From IMG/VR virus record IMGVR_UViG_2706796076_000001: a DNA stretch of 64,000 nt, one strand, 5' to 3'. Source of the DNA: a virus. Lineage: Duplodnaviria > Heunggongvirae > Uroviricota > Caudoviricetes > Herelleviridae. This document shows positions 5,748 to 51,141 of the stretch, in pieces. Numbering within the stretch: the stretch's first letter is position 1; the number at the start of each line of letters is the position of its first letter. The translations under genes and the position numbers were made by a program. The notes under the pieces are model-generated. The model did not search any database, was not told where the DNA came from, and was given only the letters and a program-made list of their open reading frames with translations.

Positions 5748-7976
5748 ATGAAAGCTTTAATTTTATACGACCACATAAGAGAAGAACATTTTAAAGTTAC
5801 AGATGATAATAAAACAAGATTAAATCTTTTTAATACTCAAAATGGTAAAACTTTAAAAATGTTATTAGAGAGATGTTCAGGTTTAGTAAGAGATAATTCT
5901 AGAAAAGATTATGATATTGATTTTGTGTATAAGGCTATACCAACACCTGTAACAAATAATTACGGTAAGATTGTTAAATACCAAGATGTAAAGCAAACAG
6001 AAGTTAAACCTTATTACTCAGAATTAACTAAACGAATTATTGATAATAATTATGATATTATTGTTCCTTTAGGTAAACTAGGTATTAAATTTTTACTAAA
6101 CGTTACAAAATTAGGTTCAGTAAGAGGTGTACCTCACAAAATAACATTAAGTACTGAAAATACAAGTAAAGGTGTTTGGGTATTACCTACTTATAGTATT
6201 GAATACACTAATGTTAATAAAAATGCTGAACGTCATGTAGTTACAGACCTTAATTTATTAGGTAAATTTGTAAAAAATGGAGAAGAAGCCTTTAAACCTA
6301 AAAAAGTGTCATATGAACTTGTAACAGATATTGAAAGAGTAAGAGAGATTTTTACTAAAGAAGTAAAAAAAGATAATAATGATGGTATAGATATAACAGC
6401 TTGGGATACAGAGACTAATTCACTAAAACCAGATAGAGCAGGAAGTAAAGTTTTAGTAGTATCTTTAAGTTGGAAAAACGGACAAGGTGTCACAATACCT
6501 ATTTATAAATCTGATTTTAATTGGAAAAACGGACAAAAAGATATTGATGAGATACTAAGTTACTTAAGAGAGTGGTTAGCTGATAAAGAGGATATAAAAG
6601 TAGGTCATAACATTAAATATGATATAAAATTCCTAATGAGTACACTAGGATTTAACACATTTGAAAATAATCAAGACACACTTGTAGGCTGGTATTTAGC
6701 TGTAACACAAGAAACCACAGATTCTAAACGCCTGTCTGACTTAGCATATGAGGTTACAGATATGGGTGGGTATGACACACCGTTAGAAGAATTTAAAAAA
6801 TGGTTTAGTAGAAAATTACTTAAATTCTTGTCAGAAAAAATGTCTACTATTATTAAAGATAACAAGAGTATTGCAAAAAAAGAACATAATATTAAAGCAA
6901 CAGAATATAAAAATTGGTTATCTGAAAACATTAGTGTGGATAAAGAAGTAGAGCTTGATAAATATGAGCAAAAAACAGAAATGAATAGTACTGATAAGCA
7001 ATATATTCAATTAGGTTTACACCCAGAACGATTAACAAAAACAATGTTAATGGGTGATTCAGAGTTTGAAGAGGTAGCTAAGCTTTCGGATGAGTATATG
7101 TCTTTAAGTGATGAAGGTAAAGAATATACACTTAAAACAGCTTTAGAATTAATTAATAGGTTTAAAAAACATACAGATGTATATAATGAAGTTGATGGTG
7201 GTAAGTTTAATTATGATTGGATTCCTTTAGAACTAATGCACCCTTATGCTAGTGGTGACGTTGATGTATGTCGTAGAATTTATTCTAATATACTAGAAAA
7301 ATTAAAAGACCAACAACGACCTAAAGCAATAAAGTTATGGCAACAAGATTATCCAAGGTTAGATAGAACCCTAGCAAGAATAGAGAGTAATGGTCTATAT
7401 GCTGATTTAGATTACATGGAAAAGAATGACAAAGCCTATGAATTAGAATTAACTAAAATTGAAAATAAAATAAGAGAACATTGGGCGGTAAAAGAATTTG
7501 AAGAAGAAAAATATAACTTATATGAACTAGGTTTAGAAGAGTTTAGTAAACCTAAAAAAGAAAGAGACCCAGAAATAGAGAAGTACAGAAATAAGTATAA
7601 AGATGATGGGTGGAAATTTAATATAGGGTCAGGAGACCATAAAAGTGAACTATTGTATAAAATATTAGGTTTTGAATTACCTTATGACCAGAACTACGTT
7701 AAAGCTACCTCTTTTGAGAAAAAGAAAGAGCAAGATATTAGTTGGGAAGACTATAAAACAGATACTAAAGCTCTAGGATATATATTATCTGATTTAGAAG
7801 TAACAGAAGATAACAAAGAACTAATAGAAGACTTATTATACTACGCCTCTATACGAACAAAACGAAACTCATTTACTCATAAGCTTCCTAGAATGGTTAA
7901 TAAAAACACACAAACACTACATGGTAGTTTCTCATCAACAACTACAAGTACAGGAAGATTAGCCAGTAGTAACCCT
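5748..7976 (+). CDS. DNA polymerase I-like (family A) with 3'-5' exonuclease, exon 1 (joins 9074..10063)
   Basis: SD GTAAGGAGAAG before ATG 5748. An exo motif ITAWDTETNSL is present. The exon ends ...TGRLASSNP immediately before the conserved NLQNIP motif, followed by an in-frame stop. Confidence 0.85.
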
Positions 7977-47802: not shown

Positions 47803-48141
47803 TTATTCAAAATATTTATTTATTTTTTCAAGTGTGTTTTCTCTTTCTTCTTCCGCTTCAATGTACTTAAAATAGTATACATCAATTAAATCATAGATAT
47901 TATCTTGAGAGAATAAAACTTTTTCAAATTCATTTCTTTCTTCCTCTTTACTTAAATCTACTACTTCTACTTGAATATTATCTCTGTATAATAGCAATAT
48001 ACCTTTATTAAAACTATTATAAGTTACACTATAGTGTTCACTTACTAGGTATGTTATTGACGTAACTCTATTTGCTTCTTTAGTTCCTTCATTTCCTTTA
48101 AGTTGAATGTATTGTACAAAATCATCTAATGTAAATTCCAT
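47803..48141 (-). CDS. hypothetical protein (112 aa), member of a small paralog family with 49044 and 49503
   Basis: MEF..DDF..YI.. N-terminus and ...IYDLIDVYY motif, shared with the (+) genes 49044 and 49503. Confidence 0.5.
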   Translation of the reverse strand: MEFTLDDFVQYIQLKGNEGTKEANRVTSITYLVSEHYSVTYNSFNKGILLLYRDNIQVEVVDLSKEEERNEFEKVLFSQDNIYDLIDVYYFKYIEAEEERENTLEKINKYFE

Positions 48142-48282: not shown

Positions 48283-48957
48283 ATGAAAAAAATTACACAA
48301 GAAGAATTAAACAATAAAATTGAATTGCATAAAGAATGGTTAGAAGATGATAACAAAGGGGAAAAGTTAGAATTAAATGGTTATAACTTAAGAAATTTAG
48401 ATTTAAGTAATTCTGATTTAAGGTACTCTAGTTTAAGTTGTTCTATTTTAAGTAATGTAGATTTAAGTTACTCTGATTTAAGTTTTTCTACTTTAAAAGA
48501 TGCTGATTTAGTAAAGATGGATTTAACAAAGGCTATTATAAGTTTTTCTAATTTAGAAAATATTGACTTAAATAGTGTTAATTTGAAAAATGCTAACTTA
48601 TATGGTGCTAATTTAGATAGTTCTTATTTAAGATGTGTTGATTTTAAAAATGCTAGTTTAAAGAATGCTAATTTAGATAATGCTCATTTAGAAAATTGTA
48701 ATCTAGAAGATGTTAATTTATCTCAAGCTAATACCCGATGTATTGAAGGACTAGAAGTATATTCAATTGACAATATAGGTACATTTGCAGGTAAAGTAAC
48801 GTATTTACCAGAGCAAGATAAAGTATTTGCTGGTTGCTGGAAAGGTAATTTAGAAAAGTTTTTAGAAAAAGGATTAGAAATGAATAAAGATAATGAGAAA
48901 GAAAAAAGGAATATTTTTAATGCTTATCAATTCTTTTTAGGTACTACAATTGATTAA
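48283..48957 (+). CDS. pentapeptide-repeat protein (Qnr/MfpA-like right-handed quadrilateral beta-helix) with C-terminal extra domain
   Basis: About 25 consecutive A(D/N)LxX pentapeptides: NLRNL DLSNS DLRYS SLSCS ILSNV DLSYS DLSFS TLKDA DLVKM DLTKA ... NLKNA NLYGA NLDSS ... The SD is AAAAGGAGAAG. Confidence 0.8.
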   Translation: MKKITQEELNNKIELHKEWLEDDNKGEKLELNGYNLRNLDLSNSDLRYSSLSCSILSNVDLSYSDLSFSTLKDADLVKMDLTKAIISFSNLENIDLNSVNLKNANLYGANLDSSYLRCVDFKNASLKNANLDNAHLENCNLEDVNLSQANTRCIEGLEVYSIDNIGTFAGKVTYLPEQDKVFAGCWKGNLEKFLEKGLEMNKDNEKEKRNIFNAYQFFLGTTID

Positions 48958-49043: not shown

Positions 49044-49388
49044 ATGGAATTTGATAGTATAGACTTAAAAAATTATATTGATAAGTATGGTAGAGTAGAT
49101 GATAAAAAATTATCAAAAACTATTGACTTAGGTAAAGGTTATGAGATACAGTATAAAGAACTAAATATTTTTTCTGGTTATTTACTATTTTGTAAAAATG
49201 GAAAAACTATATTAAAGGTAGACCTTAGTGCTTTAGATAAATTAGAACAACTTAACAAAGATATTGAATTACATTCTAACGTATTTGATTTAATTGATGA
49301 TTTATATGAAGACCTTACTAGAAAAGAAAATGAAGAAAAGAGAAGACAAAGAAGAATTGAATCAAGTGTTAAAGAATTTTTAAGCTAG
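49044..49388 (+). CDS. hypothetical protein (114 aa), paralog family member
   Basis: MEFDSIDLKNYI...VFDLIDDLYE. SD AAAGGAGAGA. Confidence 0.5.
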   Translation: MEFDSIDLKNYIDKYGRVDDKKLSKTIDLGKGYEIQYKELNIFSGYLLFCKNGKTILKVDLSALDKLEQLNKDIELHSNVFDLIDDLYEDLTRKENEEKRRQRRIESSVKEFLS

Positions 49389-49502: not shown

Positions 49503-49865
49503 GTGTTAAATAAAAAGGAGATTATACAAATGGATATTGATATTATTGGATTTAAAAATTATATTAAAGAACATGGAAGAAAAAGTTATGTAGGGTATAA
49601 TACTTATTATACTATAACTAATGATGAGTATGGTGTAGAGTGTGTTTTTGATAAAGAAGGAGGTATTGTTACTATATCAAAGGGTAACTATGTTGAAATG
49701 TTTGAATTAAACACACTTAAAGGTAGAAATTTTAAAAAGAAATTAACTAAGTTTGATACTATTTACGAATTAATTGATTTCTATGATGAAAAAAATAAAG
49801 AAAGACTTGAAAAAGAAGAAAAAGAAAAGATTAAATTAAATAAATTTTTTAAAGGTATGAAGTAA
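49503..49865 (+). CDS. hypothetical protein (120 aa), paralog family member
   Basis: ...IYELIDFYDE motif. SD AAAAGGAGA. Confidence 0.5.
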   Translation: MLNKKEIIQMDIDIIGFKNYIKEHGRKSYVGYNTYYTITNDEYGVECVFDKEGGIVTISKGNYVEMFELNTLKGRNFKKKLTKFDTIYELIDFYDEKNKERLEKEEKEKIKLNKFFKGMK

Positions 49866-49889: not shown

Positions 49890-50090
49890 ATGAGAGAATC
49901 ACTAAAAGAATTAGAAACAGTAGAGTATGTAGTAAAACGTTATTTAGAAGAATTAGGTAAAGGAACATCTTATTCTGATGAAGAATTACCTAACTTCTTA
50001 GATAAAACTTTAAAAGAAAATAGTAGATTGACAGATGAAAAATATGATGAATTATTAAAATTACTTAAAGAAGTTAACAATACTTTATAA
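49890..50090 (+). CDS. hypothetical protein (66 aa)
   Basis: SD TAAGGAGTG. Confidence 0.45.
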   Translation: MRESLKELETVEYVVKRYLEELGKGTSYSDEELPNFLDKTLKENSRLTDEKYDELLKLLKEVNNTL

Positions 50091-50096
50091 TAACAA

Positions 50097-50137
50097 ACCG
50101 CTTCAGATTAAATTCTCGAAGCGGTCTTATTTTTTTA
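50097..50137 (+). terminator. rho-independent terminator (ACCGCTTC-loop-GAAGCGGT + T9)
   Basis: 8-bp stem followed by a T-run. Confidence 0.8.
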
Positions 50138-50208
50138 GGATGAAGACCTTAAAAAATTTAGGATGATACCCCCTTAAAAATTTTTACGATAGGTTGCTTA
50201 AAAATTTC
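50137..50208. repeat. three imperfect ~23-bp direct repeats (AGGATGAnnCC..CTTAAAAATTT)
   Basis: Seen directly. They lie upstream of the promoter at 50275. Confidence 0.5.
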
Positions 50209-50274
50209 AAAAAAGTTTTATTTATAATAAGATAAACTTATATCAAGTAATAAGTAAAAGTTATCATTTTTTAC

Positions 50275-50303
50275 TTGACCTGATATTAAAAGTATGGTAT
50301 AGT
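50275..50303 (+). promoter_or_regulatory. sigma70-like promoter driving an ORF-free structured region
   Basis: TTGACC, a 17-nt spacer, then TGgTATAGT. Confidence 0.5.
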
Positions 50304-50309
50304 ATAAGT

Positions 50310-50670
50310 ACAATAAGATAAAGAGCTGATGAGTATAGGTCATGCATAGGAACCTATAGGAATAGCGACAACGATGTGGTGGTAGTGAGCCACGAGCACC
50401 TGCATAAAACTCACAGGGCGGGTATAAGATATGCAATGCTTATACTTTGTAGGTATAGATACACTATACCTTCTACCATAGTTGGTGATGTCTACCAAGC
50501 AATAAAGGACAGGGAGGACTCTTAGGTTCAATATGAACGGGGTAGTATTAACCTATTAATTTAGGTTGCGTGGATAAGAGTGCGTGTAAAAATATTAACA
50601 AAAATGAAACTAGACCTAGCCTAAACTGAAATATGATTTAGCTCTAGTATTAATATCTTTTTTAATACTA
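50310..50670 (+). ncRNA. candidate structured non-coding RNA (unknown class)
   Basis: About 360 nt with locally elevated GC and many short perfect inverted repeats (GTATAAG/CTTATAC, GGTATAG/CTATACC, GTGAG/CTCAC, GTTCA/TGAAC). There is no plausible ORF; the two minus-strand ORFs on the track here lack SDs. A promoter lies upstream and a T-run at ~50657. Confidence 0.3.
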
Positions 50671-50714
50671 GGGGGTTAATCTACCCACTACCTTCCTGAA
50701 TACTATTATATATT

Positions 50715-50901
50715 CAAGTAGTATTGTCTATATTTTACCTATATAATGTAAGTAGTATTGTATGAATTTTATTCAAATATTCTTATAAATATACATAATT
50801 AGTAAGTAGTATTGTATGAAAAAGGCTAGTTGTTTCAAGTAGTCTGGTGTCTATTTTCCCCTAAAAATAGCAAGTAGTATCGTACGGATTTCCCCTAAAA
50901 A
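50715..50901. repeat. iteron-like array: 5 direct copies of AAGTAGTATTGT(ATGAA) plus 2 copies of TTTCCCCTAAAAA
   Basis: Copies begin at 50716, 50750, 50804, 50837 and 50872. Copies 2 and 3 are identical over 19 bp (GTAAGTAGTATTGTATGAA); copies 4 and 5 are degenerate. TTTCCCCTAAAAA sits at 50855 and 50888. Confidence 0.8.
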
Positions 50902-50940
50902 AGATATAAGATATAGAACATAAAAAGACTAGGGAAAACC

Positions 50941-51141
50941 CTAGTCTAATTGATTATATAATTTTTTTAATTCATTTTCTAGTTTATTAATTTTTTCTAT
51001 ATCATTATTTCTTTTTGCTTTTCTTAATAAACTTTCTTTTATTTTTATTTTTCCACTATTTTTATTTAATTCTTTTTTTAATCCATTTTCTTTTATATTT
51101 TTATTTAATGATTTTCTTTTATCTACTTTAATATGTGTCAT
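50941..51141 (-). CDS. small basic coiled-coil protein (66 aa)
   Basis: K/N/E-rich protein on the minus strand. Confidence 0.4.
   Translation of the reverse strand: MTHIKVDKRKSLNKNIKENGLKKELNKNSGKIKIKESLLRKAKRNNDIEKINKLENELKKLYNQLD

Follow-up and report, generated by a model that had tools for sequence, protein, structure and literature searches.

The RNA locus of phage phiIPLA-C1C

The stretch of DNA analyzed here (64,000 nt, hereafter the window) comes from Staphylococcus phage vB_SepM_phiIPLA-C1C (KP027447; Sepunavirus, Twortvirinae), and its positions are those of the KP027447 record minus 61208. An earlier note on the sequence had drawn attention to an interval of raised GC content that seemed to lack genuine open reading frames (ORFs), and had taken it for a candidate non-coding RNA behind a sigma-70 promoter. 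The interval lies inside an unannotated 850-bp gap between two coding sequences (CDS); the gene on its left, which ends at 50090, closes a rightward early operon, and two leftward genes follow on its right. In this gap we found an extended -10 promoter (50275-50303, + strand) followed by the conserved core of a structured RNA (50318-50685, + strand, 368 nt), the latter delimited by a sequence alignment and RNAalifold. The evidence strongly supports the prediction that this segment encodes a stable, highly structured non-coding RNA and has its own promoter, and the element is very probably a new structured RNA of mobile elements.

Promoter-like sites are frequent in such AT-rich DNA (22 were found in the window vs 22.9 expected), so that a lone match carries little weight and conservation has to decide. 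The promoter together with a core of 368-433 nt is kept in eleven staphylococcal Twort-like phage lineages, whose homologs span 71-98% identity. The site at 50275, which the earlier note had read as TTGACC-17-TGgTATAGT, is of the sigma-70 (host sigma-A) type with TG directly before the -10 box TATAGT, and its architecture (-35 box, 17-nt spacer and TGnTAYAnT) is preserved in 11 of 11 staphylococcal homologs despite differing spacer sequences. It stands 14-29 nt upstream of the core start AUAAAGA in these lineages, and transcription in phiIPLA-C1C would begin near 50310. The rise in GC content was confirmed as well: values are 0.37-0.46 over 50300-50600 vs 0.17-0.27 in the flanks, with means of 0.38 for the core, 0.23 upstream and 0.26 downstream. 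The length of the core agrees with the approximately 360 nt first estimated.

Base pairing was assessed on an alignment of 12 homologs (A2), which was built with MAFFT from sequence only and was not fitted to any structure. The tested structure was derived by hand, its 72 pairs forming 13 helices, of which two are pseudoknots; as controls, the 3' partners were slid by 1-3 columns and the columns were shuffled 500 times. The proportion of alignment cells that could pair was 88%, compared with 39-44% in the slid controls, and 24 pairs showed double (compensatory) changes, compared with 2-8. The covariation score was 0.311 vs 0.04-0.07 in the slid controls, and none of the 500 shuffles attained the observed pairing values. 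RNAalifold alone recovered most of the hand-derived helices. G-U wobble pairs occur in the + sense only, which identifies the + strand as the folded strand; when folding was compared with shuffled sequences, z was -2.4 for the + strand and -1.5 for the - strand. Thus, the hairpins in the earlier note are real and covary across homologs.

Three local ORFs of 49, 63 and 72 aa are present here in phiIPLA-C1C, and small CDS have been annotated at this place in phage Twillingate (a 41-aa 'membrane protein') and in other records, as would be expected if the segment were a spurious GC-rich patch with no functional element, or a short protein gene. However, stops and frameshifts disrupt all three ORFs in each of the other lineages, no ORF is conserved, and substitutions among the staphylococcal lineages lack 3-base periodicity and fall evenly over the three codon positions, so that a protein-coding reading was rejected. 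Considering also the strong compensatory covariation and the conservation over phages and plasmids, either alternative, a chance patch or a small protein gene, is scarcely credible. Two minus-strand ORFs had already been judged spurious in the earlier note, and its suggestion of a non-coding RNA is strongly supported by the covariation, the lack of a conserved ORF and the conserved promoter.

On the left, the cassette is bounded by a sequence that reads as the intrinsic terminator of the upstream early operon (50096-50136, + strand; hairpin AACCGCTTC...GAAGCGGT followed by a T-run). Just 3' of it, and approximately 70-140 bp upstream of the -35 box, are three degenerate direct repeats of about 24 bp (50137-50208, + strand) of the form (AGGATGA/ACGATAG)-N-CTTAAAAAWTT, which provide phased A-tracts upstream of the promoter. 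CTTAAAAAWTT begins at 50148, 50173 and 50197 (spacing 25 and 24 bp), and only four copies occur in the whole 64 kb. The repeats are more than chance, yet degenerate. They are kept in the near-identical Sepunavirus copies, have a loose echo in phage PG-2021_10 (AGGAT/ACGATA words), and are absent from the CF5 and Baoshanvirus homologs among the loci compared. The earlier note was therefore right that three non-chance repeats exist, but AGGATGA precedes two copies only (ACGATAG stands before the third), and its idea that they are operator sites is weakened because they are poorly conserved. An UP-element-like role, bent DNA or protein binding would all be possible.

Directly 3' of the RNA core is an AT-rich tract with iteron-like AAGTAGTNTNG repeats (50711-50902, + strand), as the earlier note had also seen. 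Five copies are located at 50715-50885, and five of the six matches in the window fall in this tract; they have only an 11-nt core in common and are irregularly spaced (34, 54, 33 and 35 nt from start to start). AT-rich tracts occupy the equivalent place in the homologs (GC 0.16-0.30), with AAGTAGT repeats in PG-2021_10, other short AT-rich repeats in CF5 and no clear iterons in the Baoshanvirus phages. The tract of phiIPLA-C1C is a candidate unwinding or initiation zone, or a candidate protein-binding array. No + strand terminator or U-tract was found after the core in phiIPLA-C1C, CF5 or PG-2021_10. Past the repeat array, a bidirectional hairpin terminator (50926-50947) forms the right boundary of the cassette. 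It is strong in the direction of the convergent minus-strand genes and weak on the + strand, and the RNA transcript could stop here at the earliest.

The RNA gene sits in the early accessory region, adjoining homologs of the terminal-repeat (Tre) genes, and judging from the Tre gene names and the start points of several records it may lie inside the terminal repeat. The same early cluster contains a pentapeptide-repeat protein gene (48283-48957, + strand), which is so annotated in several relatives. Three small ORFs near the locus (47803-48141 on the - strand, 49044-49388 and 49503-49865 on the + strand) resemble paralogs, with an N-terminal ME/MD..(D/F)..NYI..G(R/N), a C-terminal (D/E)LID.Y and then a charged tail. 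In phage SEP1, SEP1_140 (membrane protein) and SEP1_141 (193 aa) replace the RNA gene (L007 1788-3147 compared with window 50100-50950), which amounts to a cassette exchange between the same terminator-containing flanks in phages that are otherwise about 96% identical; 35 bp of the upstream terminator are kept in SEP1. The early region of Twillingate carries acrIIIA1 approximately 2.6 kb downstream of the RNA gene (L002 locus 5748-5851; record 7425-7691), and this gene, gp17, is a type III-A anti-CRISPR gene (PMC11662646).

Anatomy of the fold and comparison with known RNAs

The fold comprises at least 10 covarying helices (numbered from P1) and two pseudoknots (PK1 and PK2), all on the + strand. 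The leader AUAAAGA at 50318 is followed by P1 (GCUG/UAGC), an asymmetric internal loop (AUGAG / GGAA) and the P2 hairpin (50325-50366), whose helices are 100% paired and show double changes in 7 of 11 pairs. The P3 and P4 hairpins (50376-50419) are joined by the loop-loop pseudoknot PK1, in which GUGAG (50385-50389) pairs with CUCAC (50410-50414); its variants are GUGAG/CUCAC, GAGAG/UUCUC and AUCGGA/UUCGAU. The P5 and P6 hairpins (50422-50470) are variable and are fused into one hairpin in the JDF86/PSU4 lineage. Next comes the family core (50472-50518), where P7 (UCUACC/GGAGGA) encloses P8 (UUGGUG-AUGUC-UACCAA). The loop of P8 pairs with the last four nucleotides of an A-rich linker, just ahead of GGGnGG, forming the H-type pseudoknot PK2 (UGUC/GACA here). 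PK2 is complementary in 17 of 17 sequences through five combinations (UGUC/GACA, UGAC/GUCA, UGGC/GUCA, GCGC/GCGC and GGGC/GCCC), and the P8/PK2 pseudoknot followed by GGGnGG is the invariant heart of the fold. A pairing of the P8 loop with the downstream GGACUC was considered and dropped, as PK2 covaries instead.

The 3' domain (50518-50641) is variable and includes P9 (ACUCUUA/UAAGAGU), P10 (GUUCA/UGAAC), P11 and further hairpins, the details of the pairing, including P12 and a possible GGGUAG/CUACCC helix, being tentative. It is short (type A) in phiIPLA-C1C and CF5, and longer (type B) in the PG-2021 and Baoshanvirus phages. P10 (50526-50538) appears as six complementary stems (GUUCA/UGAAC, GAUUA/UAAUC, GAUUC/GAAUC, GUAC/GUAC, GUGC/GCAC and AUGC/GCAU), and a U-A pair of P9 becomes G-U and A-U in CF5 and IMGVR12. 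The conserved core ends with a terminal hairpin (CUAGUAUUAA/UUAAUACUAG, 50644-50671) and the 3' motif GGGGGUUAAUCUACCC (GGG-loop-CCC), together spanning 50644-50686, with no U-tract after them. Two signatures characterize the family. The first is P8 (UGGUG-N5-YACCA) with its loop pairing the linker 4-mer before GGGnGG, present at 50482-50518. The second is P10 after the core, then a terminal hairpin ending in CUAG and GGG-loop-CC; it is present in the window and also in the staphylococcal homologs, in two distant elements described below (L064 and L061) and in plasmids of lactic acid bacteria (LAB), although P10 is not evident in L064.

The internal loop between P1 and P2, UGANGAG over GGAAUA with the variable N being U, A or C, resembles a K-turn or a hammerhead core. 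When A2 was compared with the K-turn, the GA of the 5' strand and the GA of the 3' strand were both in the expected position beside P2, and the variable N would correspond to L3, but the simple consensus does not accommodate the additional unpaired A and U of the non-bulged strand. Group I introns are known from Twort-like phages, and CUGANGAG...GGAAUA with N freely U, A or C recalls the hammerhead core, so a self-cleaving ribozyme, a degenerate intron, or a diverged 6S RNA, tmRNA or RNase P RNA was weighed. P1, however, covaries and closes the loop, which is therefore an internal loop and not the three-way junction of a hammerhead; GAAA/A15.1 is absent, flanking exons are lacking, and the element has its own promoter. 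Neither Rfam 15 nor ARAGORN returned a match for these classes, and such an identity is highly improbable. The 6S-like decoy, degenerate intron and ribozyme proposed among others in the earlier note are thus not upheld; for 6S RNA in particular, the multi-domain fold with two pseudoknots does not match the expected rod of about 180-200 nt with a large central bubble.

The search with Rfam 15 covered 4227 models, including 6S, tmRNA, RNase P, group I and II introns, hammerheads, ROOL, GOLLD, raiA, T-box and RNAI. There were no matches at the gathering thresholds in the whole window, nothing overlapping 50305-50700 even at E<=10, and nothing overlapping the RNA in the GC-richer homologs L061 and L064 at E<=1. 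ARAGORN found no tRNA or tmRNA in the window, and the RNAI model had no match there either (a conserved antisense promoter was not searched for). The profile scan that had been suggested earlier therefore places the RNA in no known family. No paper describing it was found in a literature search of limited reach. The family is undescribed: it has no Rfam 15 model, and no inspected record annotates the RNA.

Several other classes of RNA share some features with it. ROOL and GOLLD are likewise large, intricate non-coding RNAs of Firmicutes phages and plasmids, abundant where measured; the present RNA is smaller (370-650 nt across the family), has another core and no tRNA array beside it, and neither model matched in the window, L061 or L064. 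The Kayvirus transcripts lncRNA1 and lncRNA2 (lnc001 and lnc002 of phage K) also come from staphylococcal Twort-like phages and are 500 nt or more in length and reportedly highly abundant, one of them with its own early promoter (PMC7698491, PMC9241854). Their loci are different ones, on the opposite strand and adjacent to tRNA genes (- strand of phage K, 37679-38832 and 13595-14229), and they were rejected as homologs since these loci (L047 and L048) gave no nhmmer match to the staphylococcal or the LAB profile. A type III toxin-antitoxin (ToxI-like) RNA, which would consist of exact tandem repeats of about 36 nt beside an endoribonuclease toxin gene, did not fit either: the core is non-repetitive, the downstream repeats agree in their 11-nt core only and are irregularly spaced, and no conserved protein is adjacent.

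Distribution among phages, satellites and plasmids

Blastn searches identified a near-identical segment in approximately 16 Sepunavirus records and diverged forms with 71-85% identity in CF5, the PG-2021 phages and the Baoshanvirus group (BS1, BS2, Golestan101, JDF86, PSU4 and J51Sa). Further copies are present in IMG/VR and metagenome contigs. In the inspected records the segment is unannotated or overlapped only by short hypothetical CDS. In all, conserved copies of the element occur in four groups of phages and in plasmids.

The most distant copies were recovered with the degenerate core pattern GGTGNTGNCTACC...AAAGGNCAGGG. In the metagenome contig L061, which is phage-plasmid-like, the RNA has a ParA gene on one side and HNH and antirepressor genes on the other; in L064, a 12.8-kb IMG/VR element, it follows a tyrosine integrase gene and precedes terminase and portal genes. 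P10 is present in L061, both elements have the terminal hairpin and the CUAGGG..AAGUCUACC motif, and the 3' end of L064 (CTAGTAA..TTACTAGGGTAAGTCTACC) is almost that of phage PG-2021_10. Because these features lie outside the search pattern, L061 and L064 are true relatives. A pattern scan of a genome collection gave two matches only (Kushneria and a metagenome-assembled genome of Dehalococcoidia), neither with an nhmmer match, and its gap range of 4-12 would miss copies of the L064 type.

With L061 and L064 as blastn queries against PLSDB, three Paucilactobacillus plasmids and the Pediococcus plasmid pKPP02 were found, and successive queries raised the number to 90 and then 454 Lactobacillaceae plasmid records. 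These comprise L. plantarum (321), Levilactobacillus brevis (68), Pediococcus (21), Loigolactobacillus (18), Leuconostoc (9) and others, and no annotated feature lies beneath the match in any of the plasmid records listed. One copy is on pWCFS103 of the model strain L. plantarum WCFS1 (L079; 1229-1787, - strand). The plasmids that carry the RNA are 23-80 kb in size. As judged from these comparisons, the family is a mobile-element RNA of Bacilli, found in some staphylococcal Twort-like phages, in satellite or phage-plasmid elements and in hundreds of Lactobacillaceae plasmids.

Two small elements deserve separate mention. pKPP02 (L071, 13.2 kb) and L064 have terminase, portal and capsid genes with few other phage functions, and look like capsid-forming satellites or phage-plasmids. 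The RNA sits in the largest non-coding gap of each, and pKPP02-like circles occur in two Pediococcus strains.

Plasmid context and candidate roles of the RNA

In all eight of the plasmids or contigs inspected (L061, pHY011, P. oligofermentans plasmid II, Lp16D, pLP-ZJ102, pSN35N-2, pKB290-4 and pWCFS103), the RNA is divergent from a parA/parB-like operon. The order in Lp16D is parA, par-type repeats, a consensus promoter (TTGACA-17-TACAAT), an RNA of about 600 nt, an AT-rich tract with TTCACAAAGT repeats and a terminator, and pHY011 keeps the par-type repeats, promoter and RNA. Between L061 and pHY011, identity of the ParA proteins is only 26%, so that the pairing of ParA with the RNA is not simply one conserved block. 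The repeat arrays between parA and the RNA promoter also differ, with GCACTA/GTAGTTC words in L068 (3480-3790), ATGTAGA in L073 (4540-4770) and TTACAA in L069 (2080-2230); since they differ between plasmids, the repeats appear to follow the par system, as a centromere-like site would, and not the RNA module. The AAGTAGT repeats by parA in pHY011 were considered as an iteron shared with the phages, but this is probably coincidence, as Lp16D has ATGTAGA and the P. oligofermentans plasmid TTACAA in this place.

The gene tables of five complete plasmids (pHY011, Lp16D, pSN35N-2, pKB290-4 and pWCFS103) list no replication initiator (Rep). A scan of the pHY011 proteins, mostly hypothetical, found no Rep family in Pfam, and in an unlisted stretch of this plasmid only relaxase- and topoisomerase-like fragments could be recognized by eye among the ORF translations. 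The minimum of the detrended cumulative GC skew falls 35 bp from the RNA midpoint in pHY011, where the maximum is antipodal, and 135 bp from it in Lp16D; it is 8% of the circle away in pWCFS103.

An element made up of a promoter, an RNA of about 600 nt, an AT-rich repeat tract and a terminator, divergent from parAB on plasmids without a recognizable initiator, suggests a role in replication. We tentatively propose that the RNA may be origin-associated, in the manner of ColE1 RNA II, and among the readings weighed this one appears to account for most of the observations. Host RNA polymerase would make the folded RNA toward the adjacent AT-rich repeat tract, and the fold would let the 3' part of the RNA remain hybridized to this tract (50711-50902 in the phage) or be processed there. 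The RNA-DNA step would then supply a primer, or open the duplex, for the host or phage replisome, and in the phage the locus would be an accessory early origin. The logic would be that of ColE1 RNA II or of the R-loops at oriF and oriG of phage T4. It would be a more doubtful step, though a possible one, to regard the RNA as an essential and perhaps the only element-encoded determinant of a Rep-less theta replicon widespread in Lactobacillaceae plasmids (pWCFS103, possibly p256/pSIP), which a subset of staphylococcal Twort-like phages and capsid-forming satellites would have co-opted. Of the functions that the earlier note had listed, an origin-priming transcript fits the plasmid context best (par side, no listed Rep, two skew minima and AT-rich tract), but the role itself can be put forward only with reserve.

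The likeness to ColE1/pMB1 RNA II (class B theta replication) is one of organization: a constitutive promoter drives a structured RNA of several hundred nt toward a would-be start of DNA synthesis, no element-encoded initiator is needed (none is listed in the five plasmids), and the fold of the RNA would decide its ability to act at the origin. On the other hand, neither the sequence nor Rfam shows any similarity, the present elements belong to Bacilli and not to enterobacteria, and an H-type pseudoknot forms the core here, whereas RNA II has none. What they offer for comparison is the promoter, the fold, the downstream AT-rich tract and a skew minimum on the element in 2 of 6 replicons, and the phage has replication genes of its own. 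In the T4 origins oriF(uvsY) and oriG(34), which form R-loops, and the primary origin of T7, a promoter transcript likewise enters an AT-rich unwinding element and primes the leading strand. No requirement for an elaborate conserved fold is known for those transcripts, which plasmids do not share, and the arrangement described here is read from sequence. Origins of the T4/T7 type are accessory and redundant, and relatives could therefore lack the element.

A further parallel is the Rep-less p256-type replicon of Lactiplantibacillus plantarum (256rep of the pSIP vectors), which belongs to the host group of most family members. In pTC7, a plasmid with five nucleotide differences from p256, a rep gene could not be detected, and p256 itself has been proposed to replicate by the theta mode (PMC8346141). 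A 1,690-bp plasmid with nothing but the mini-origin of p256 and a cat gene is also maintained (PMC3526553), so that a mini-origin too small for a Rep gene replicates. p256 is 7.2 kb in size, compared with 23-80 kb for the RNA-carrying plasmids, and the comparison was made through one primer only. An 'Ori p256' sequence in one preprint supplement resembles the pUC (pMB1) origin by eye and is apparently mislabelled.

Several observations weigh against a role at the origin. No copy was detected in Kayviruses by blastn, and SEP1, a close relative, carries two CDS in place of the RNA, so that the RNA is dispensable for phages of this kind. No staphylococcal plasmid has a blastn-detectable copy, and the satellite-like pKPP02 encodes a superfamily 1 (SF1) helicase. 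The Paucilactobacillus plasmids (for example, pHY011) have a C/A-rich tail and a small ORF after the RNA and no clear AT-rich tract. Pseudogenes and some genes are missing from the gene tables of PLSDB, and one of the hypothetical proteins could be a novel Rep. With regard to the GC skew, the minimum lies elsewhere in 3 of 6 replicons, which are mosaic, and the measure is confounded by the divergent gene orientation at the RNA/parA locus. Finally, the published p256 mini-origin primer (a single primer) matches none of the RNA loci compared.

The main rival reading, only somewhat less likely, is that the RNA acts in trans early in infection, as a folded RNA or RNP binding or sequestering a host factor or an immune sensor in anti-defence or host takeover, with no part in replication; the par neighbourhood would then be a maintenance or accessory region. 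The patchy, cassette-like distribution in close relatives, as in SEP1 with its two CDS, is typical of accessory and counter-defence loci. The promoter is of an early type and adjoins the Tre genes, acrIIIA1 lies approximately 2.6 kb downstream in Twillingate (PMC11662646), and phages, satellites and plasmids all face host defences. An ornate, pseudoknotted fold is also a feature of phage-borne RNAs of no assigned function such as ROOL and GOLLD. However, no conserved protein partner or target is evident, acrIIIA1 alone was necessary and sufficient for the anti-CRISPR effect (PMC11662646), and a trans-acting RNA does not predict the divergent parA position in eight of eight cases, the plasmids without a listed Rep or the two GC-skew minima on the element.

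Covariation cannot separate an RNA fold from a fold of + strand single-stranded DNA (ssDNA), and the fold might in principle belong to the latter, as an sso/ssi-like single-strand initiation signal for lagging-strand or post-conjugation priming. The large proportion of mobilizable plasmids (367 of the 454 records are so typed), the common occurrence of MobQ relaxases and the lack of a terminator marking the RNA 3' end are consistent with such a signal. Like the present element, ssoA and ssoU are orientation-specific structured elements of Gram-positive mobile DNA with conserved pairing, on which host RNA polymerase acts to prime DNA synthesis; unlike it, they are folded ssDNA of about 150-300 nt with RSB and CS-6 boxes and belong to rolling-circle plasmids. 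The element described here has a duplex-DNA promoter upstream and conserved pseudoknots, and occurs in large theta-type plasmids and a dsDNA phage. The extended -10 promoter stands at a short fixed distance upstream in all staphylococcal copies, and Lp16D has TTGACA-17-TACAAT. Frequent G-U wobbles and pseudoknots with A-rich linkers are typical of RNA architecture, a virulent dsDNA myophage has no obligatory ssDNA stage, and pHY011 retains the element though its relaxase is fragmented. An origin of the ssoA type in particular does not fit: TAGCGA at 50362-50367 belongs to the covarying P1, where it changes in a compensated way (UAGC, UAAG, UAGG and UAGU), and there is no conserved CS-6 box (TAGCGT). 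An ssDNA signal is thus improbable.

A cis-regulatory leader, riboswitch-like or acting as an attenuator for downstream genes on the same strand, is very improbable. Its size and complexity would be within the range of large riboswitches, and a small ORF starts soon after the RNA in pHY011, pKB290-4, pKPP02 and L061. In phiIPLA-C1C, by contrast, the next genes are on the opposite strand with the bidirectional terminator between, and in Baoshanvirus the next + strand genes stand behind consensus -35/-10 promoter-like sequences of their own, as seen by eye. An insertion sequence (IS) element follows the RNA in Lp16D and pSN35N-2, and no expression platform is conserved.

If the RNA gene is as predicted, a large pseudoknotted RNA family without an Rfam model would be present in staphylococcal phages of the therapeutic type and, among food and probiotic lactobacilli, in no fewer than 454 plasmid records. 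Should the RNA act in trans, a factor common to Staphylococcus and Lactobacillaceae would be its target, and the RNA would join the candidates for interference at the RNA level. Should the link to an origin hold, it would explain how many large Lactobacillaceae plasmids, such as pWCFS103, replicate without a recognizable Rep gene, and would provide a small, defined, protein-free replicon for vector design and incompatibility typing. Plasmids, satellites and virulent phages would then have exchanged an RNA-based origin module, which would represent a new form of RNA-dependent replication initiation and a Gram-positive counterpart of ColE1 RNA II built on an H-type pseudoknot.

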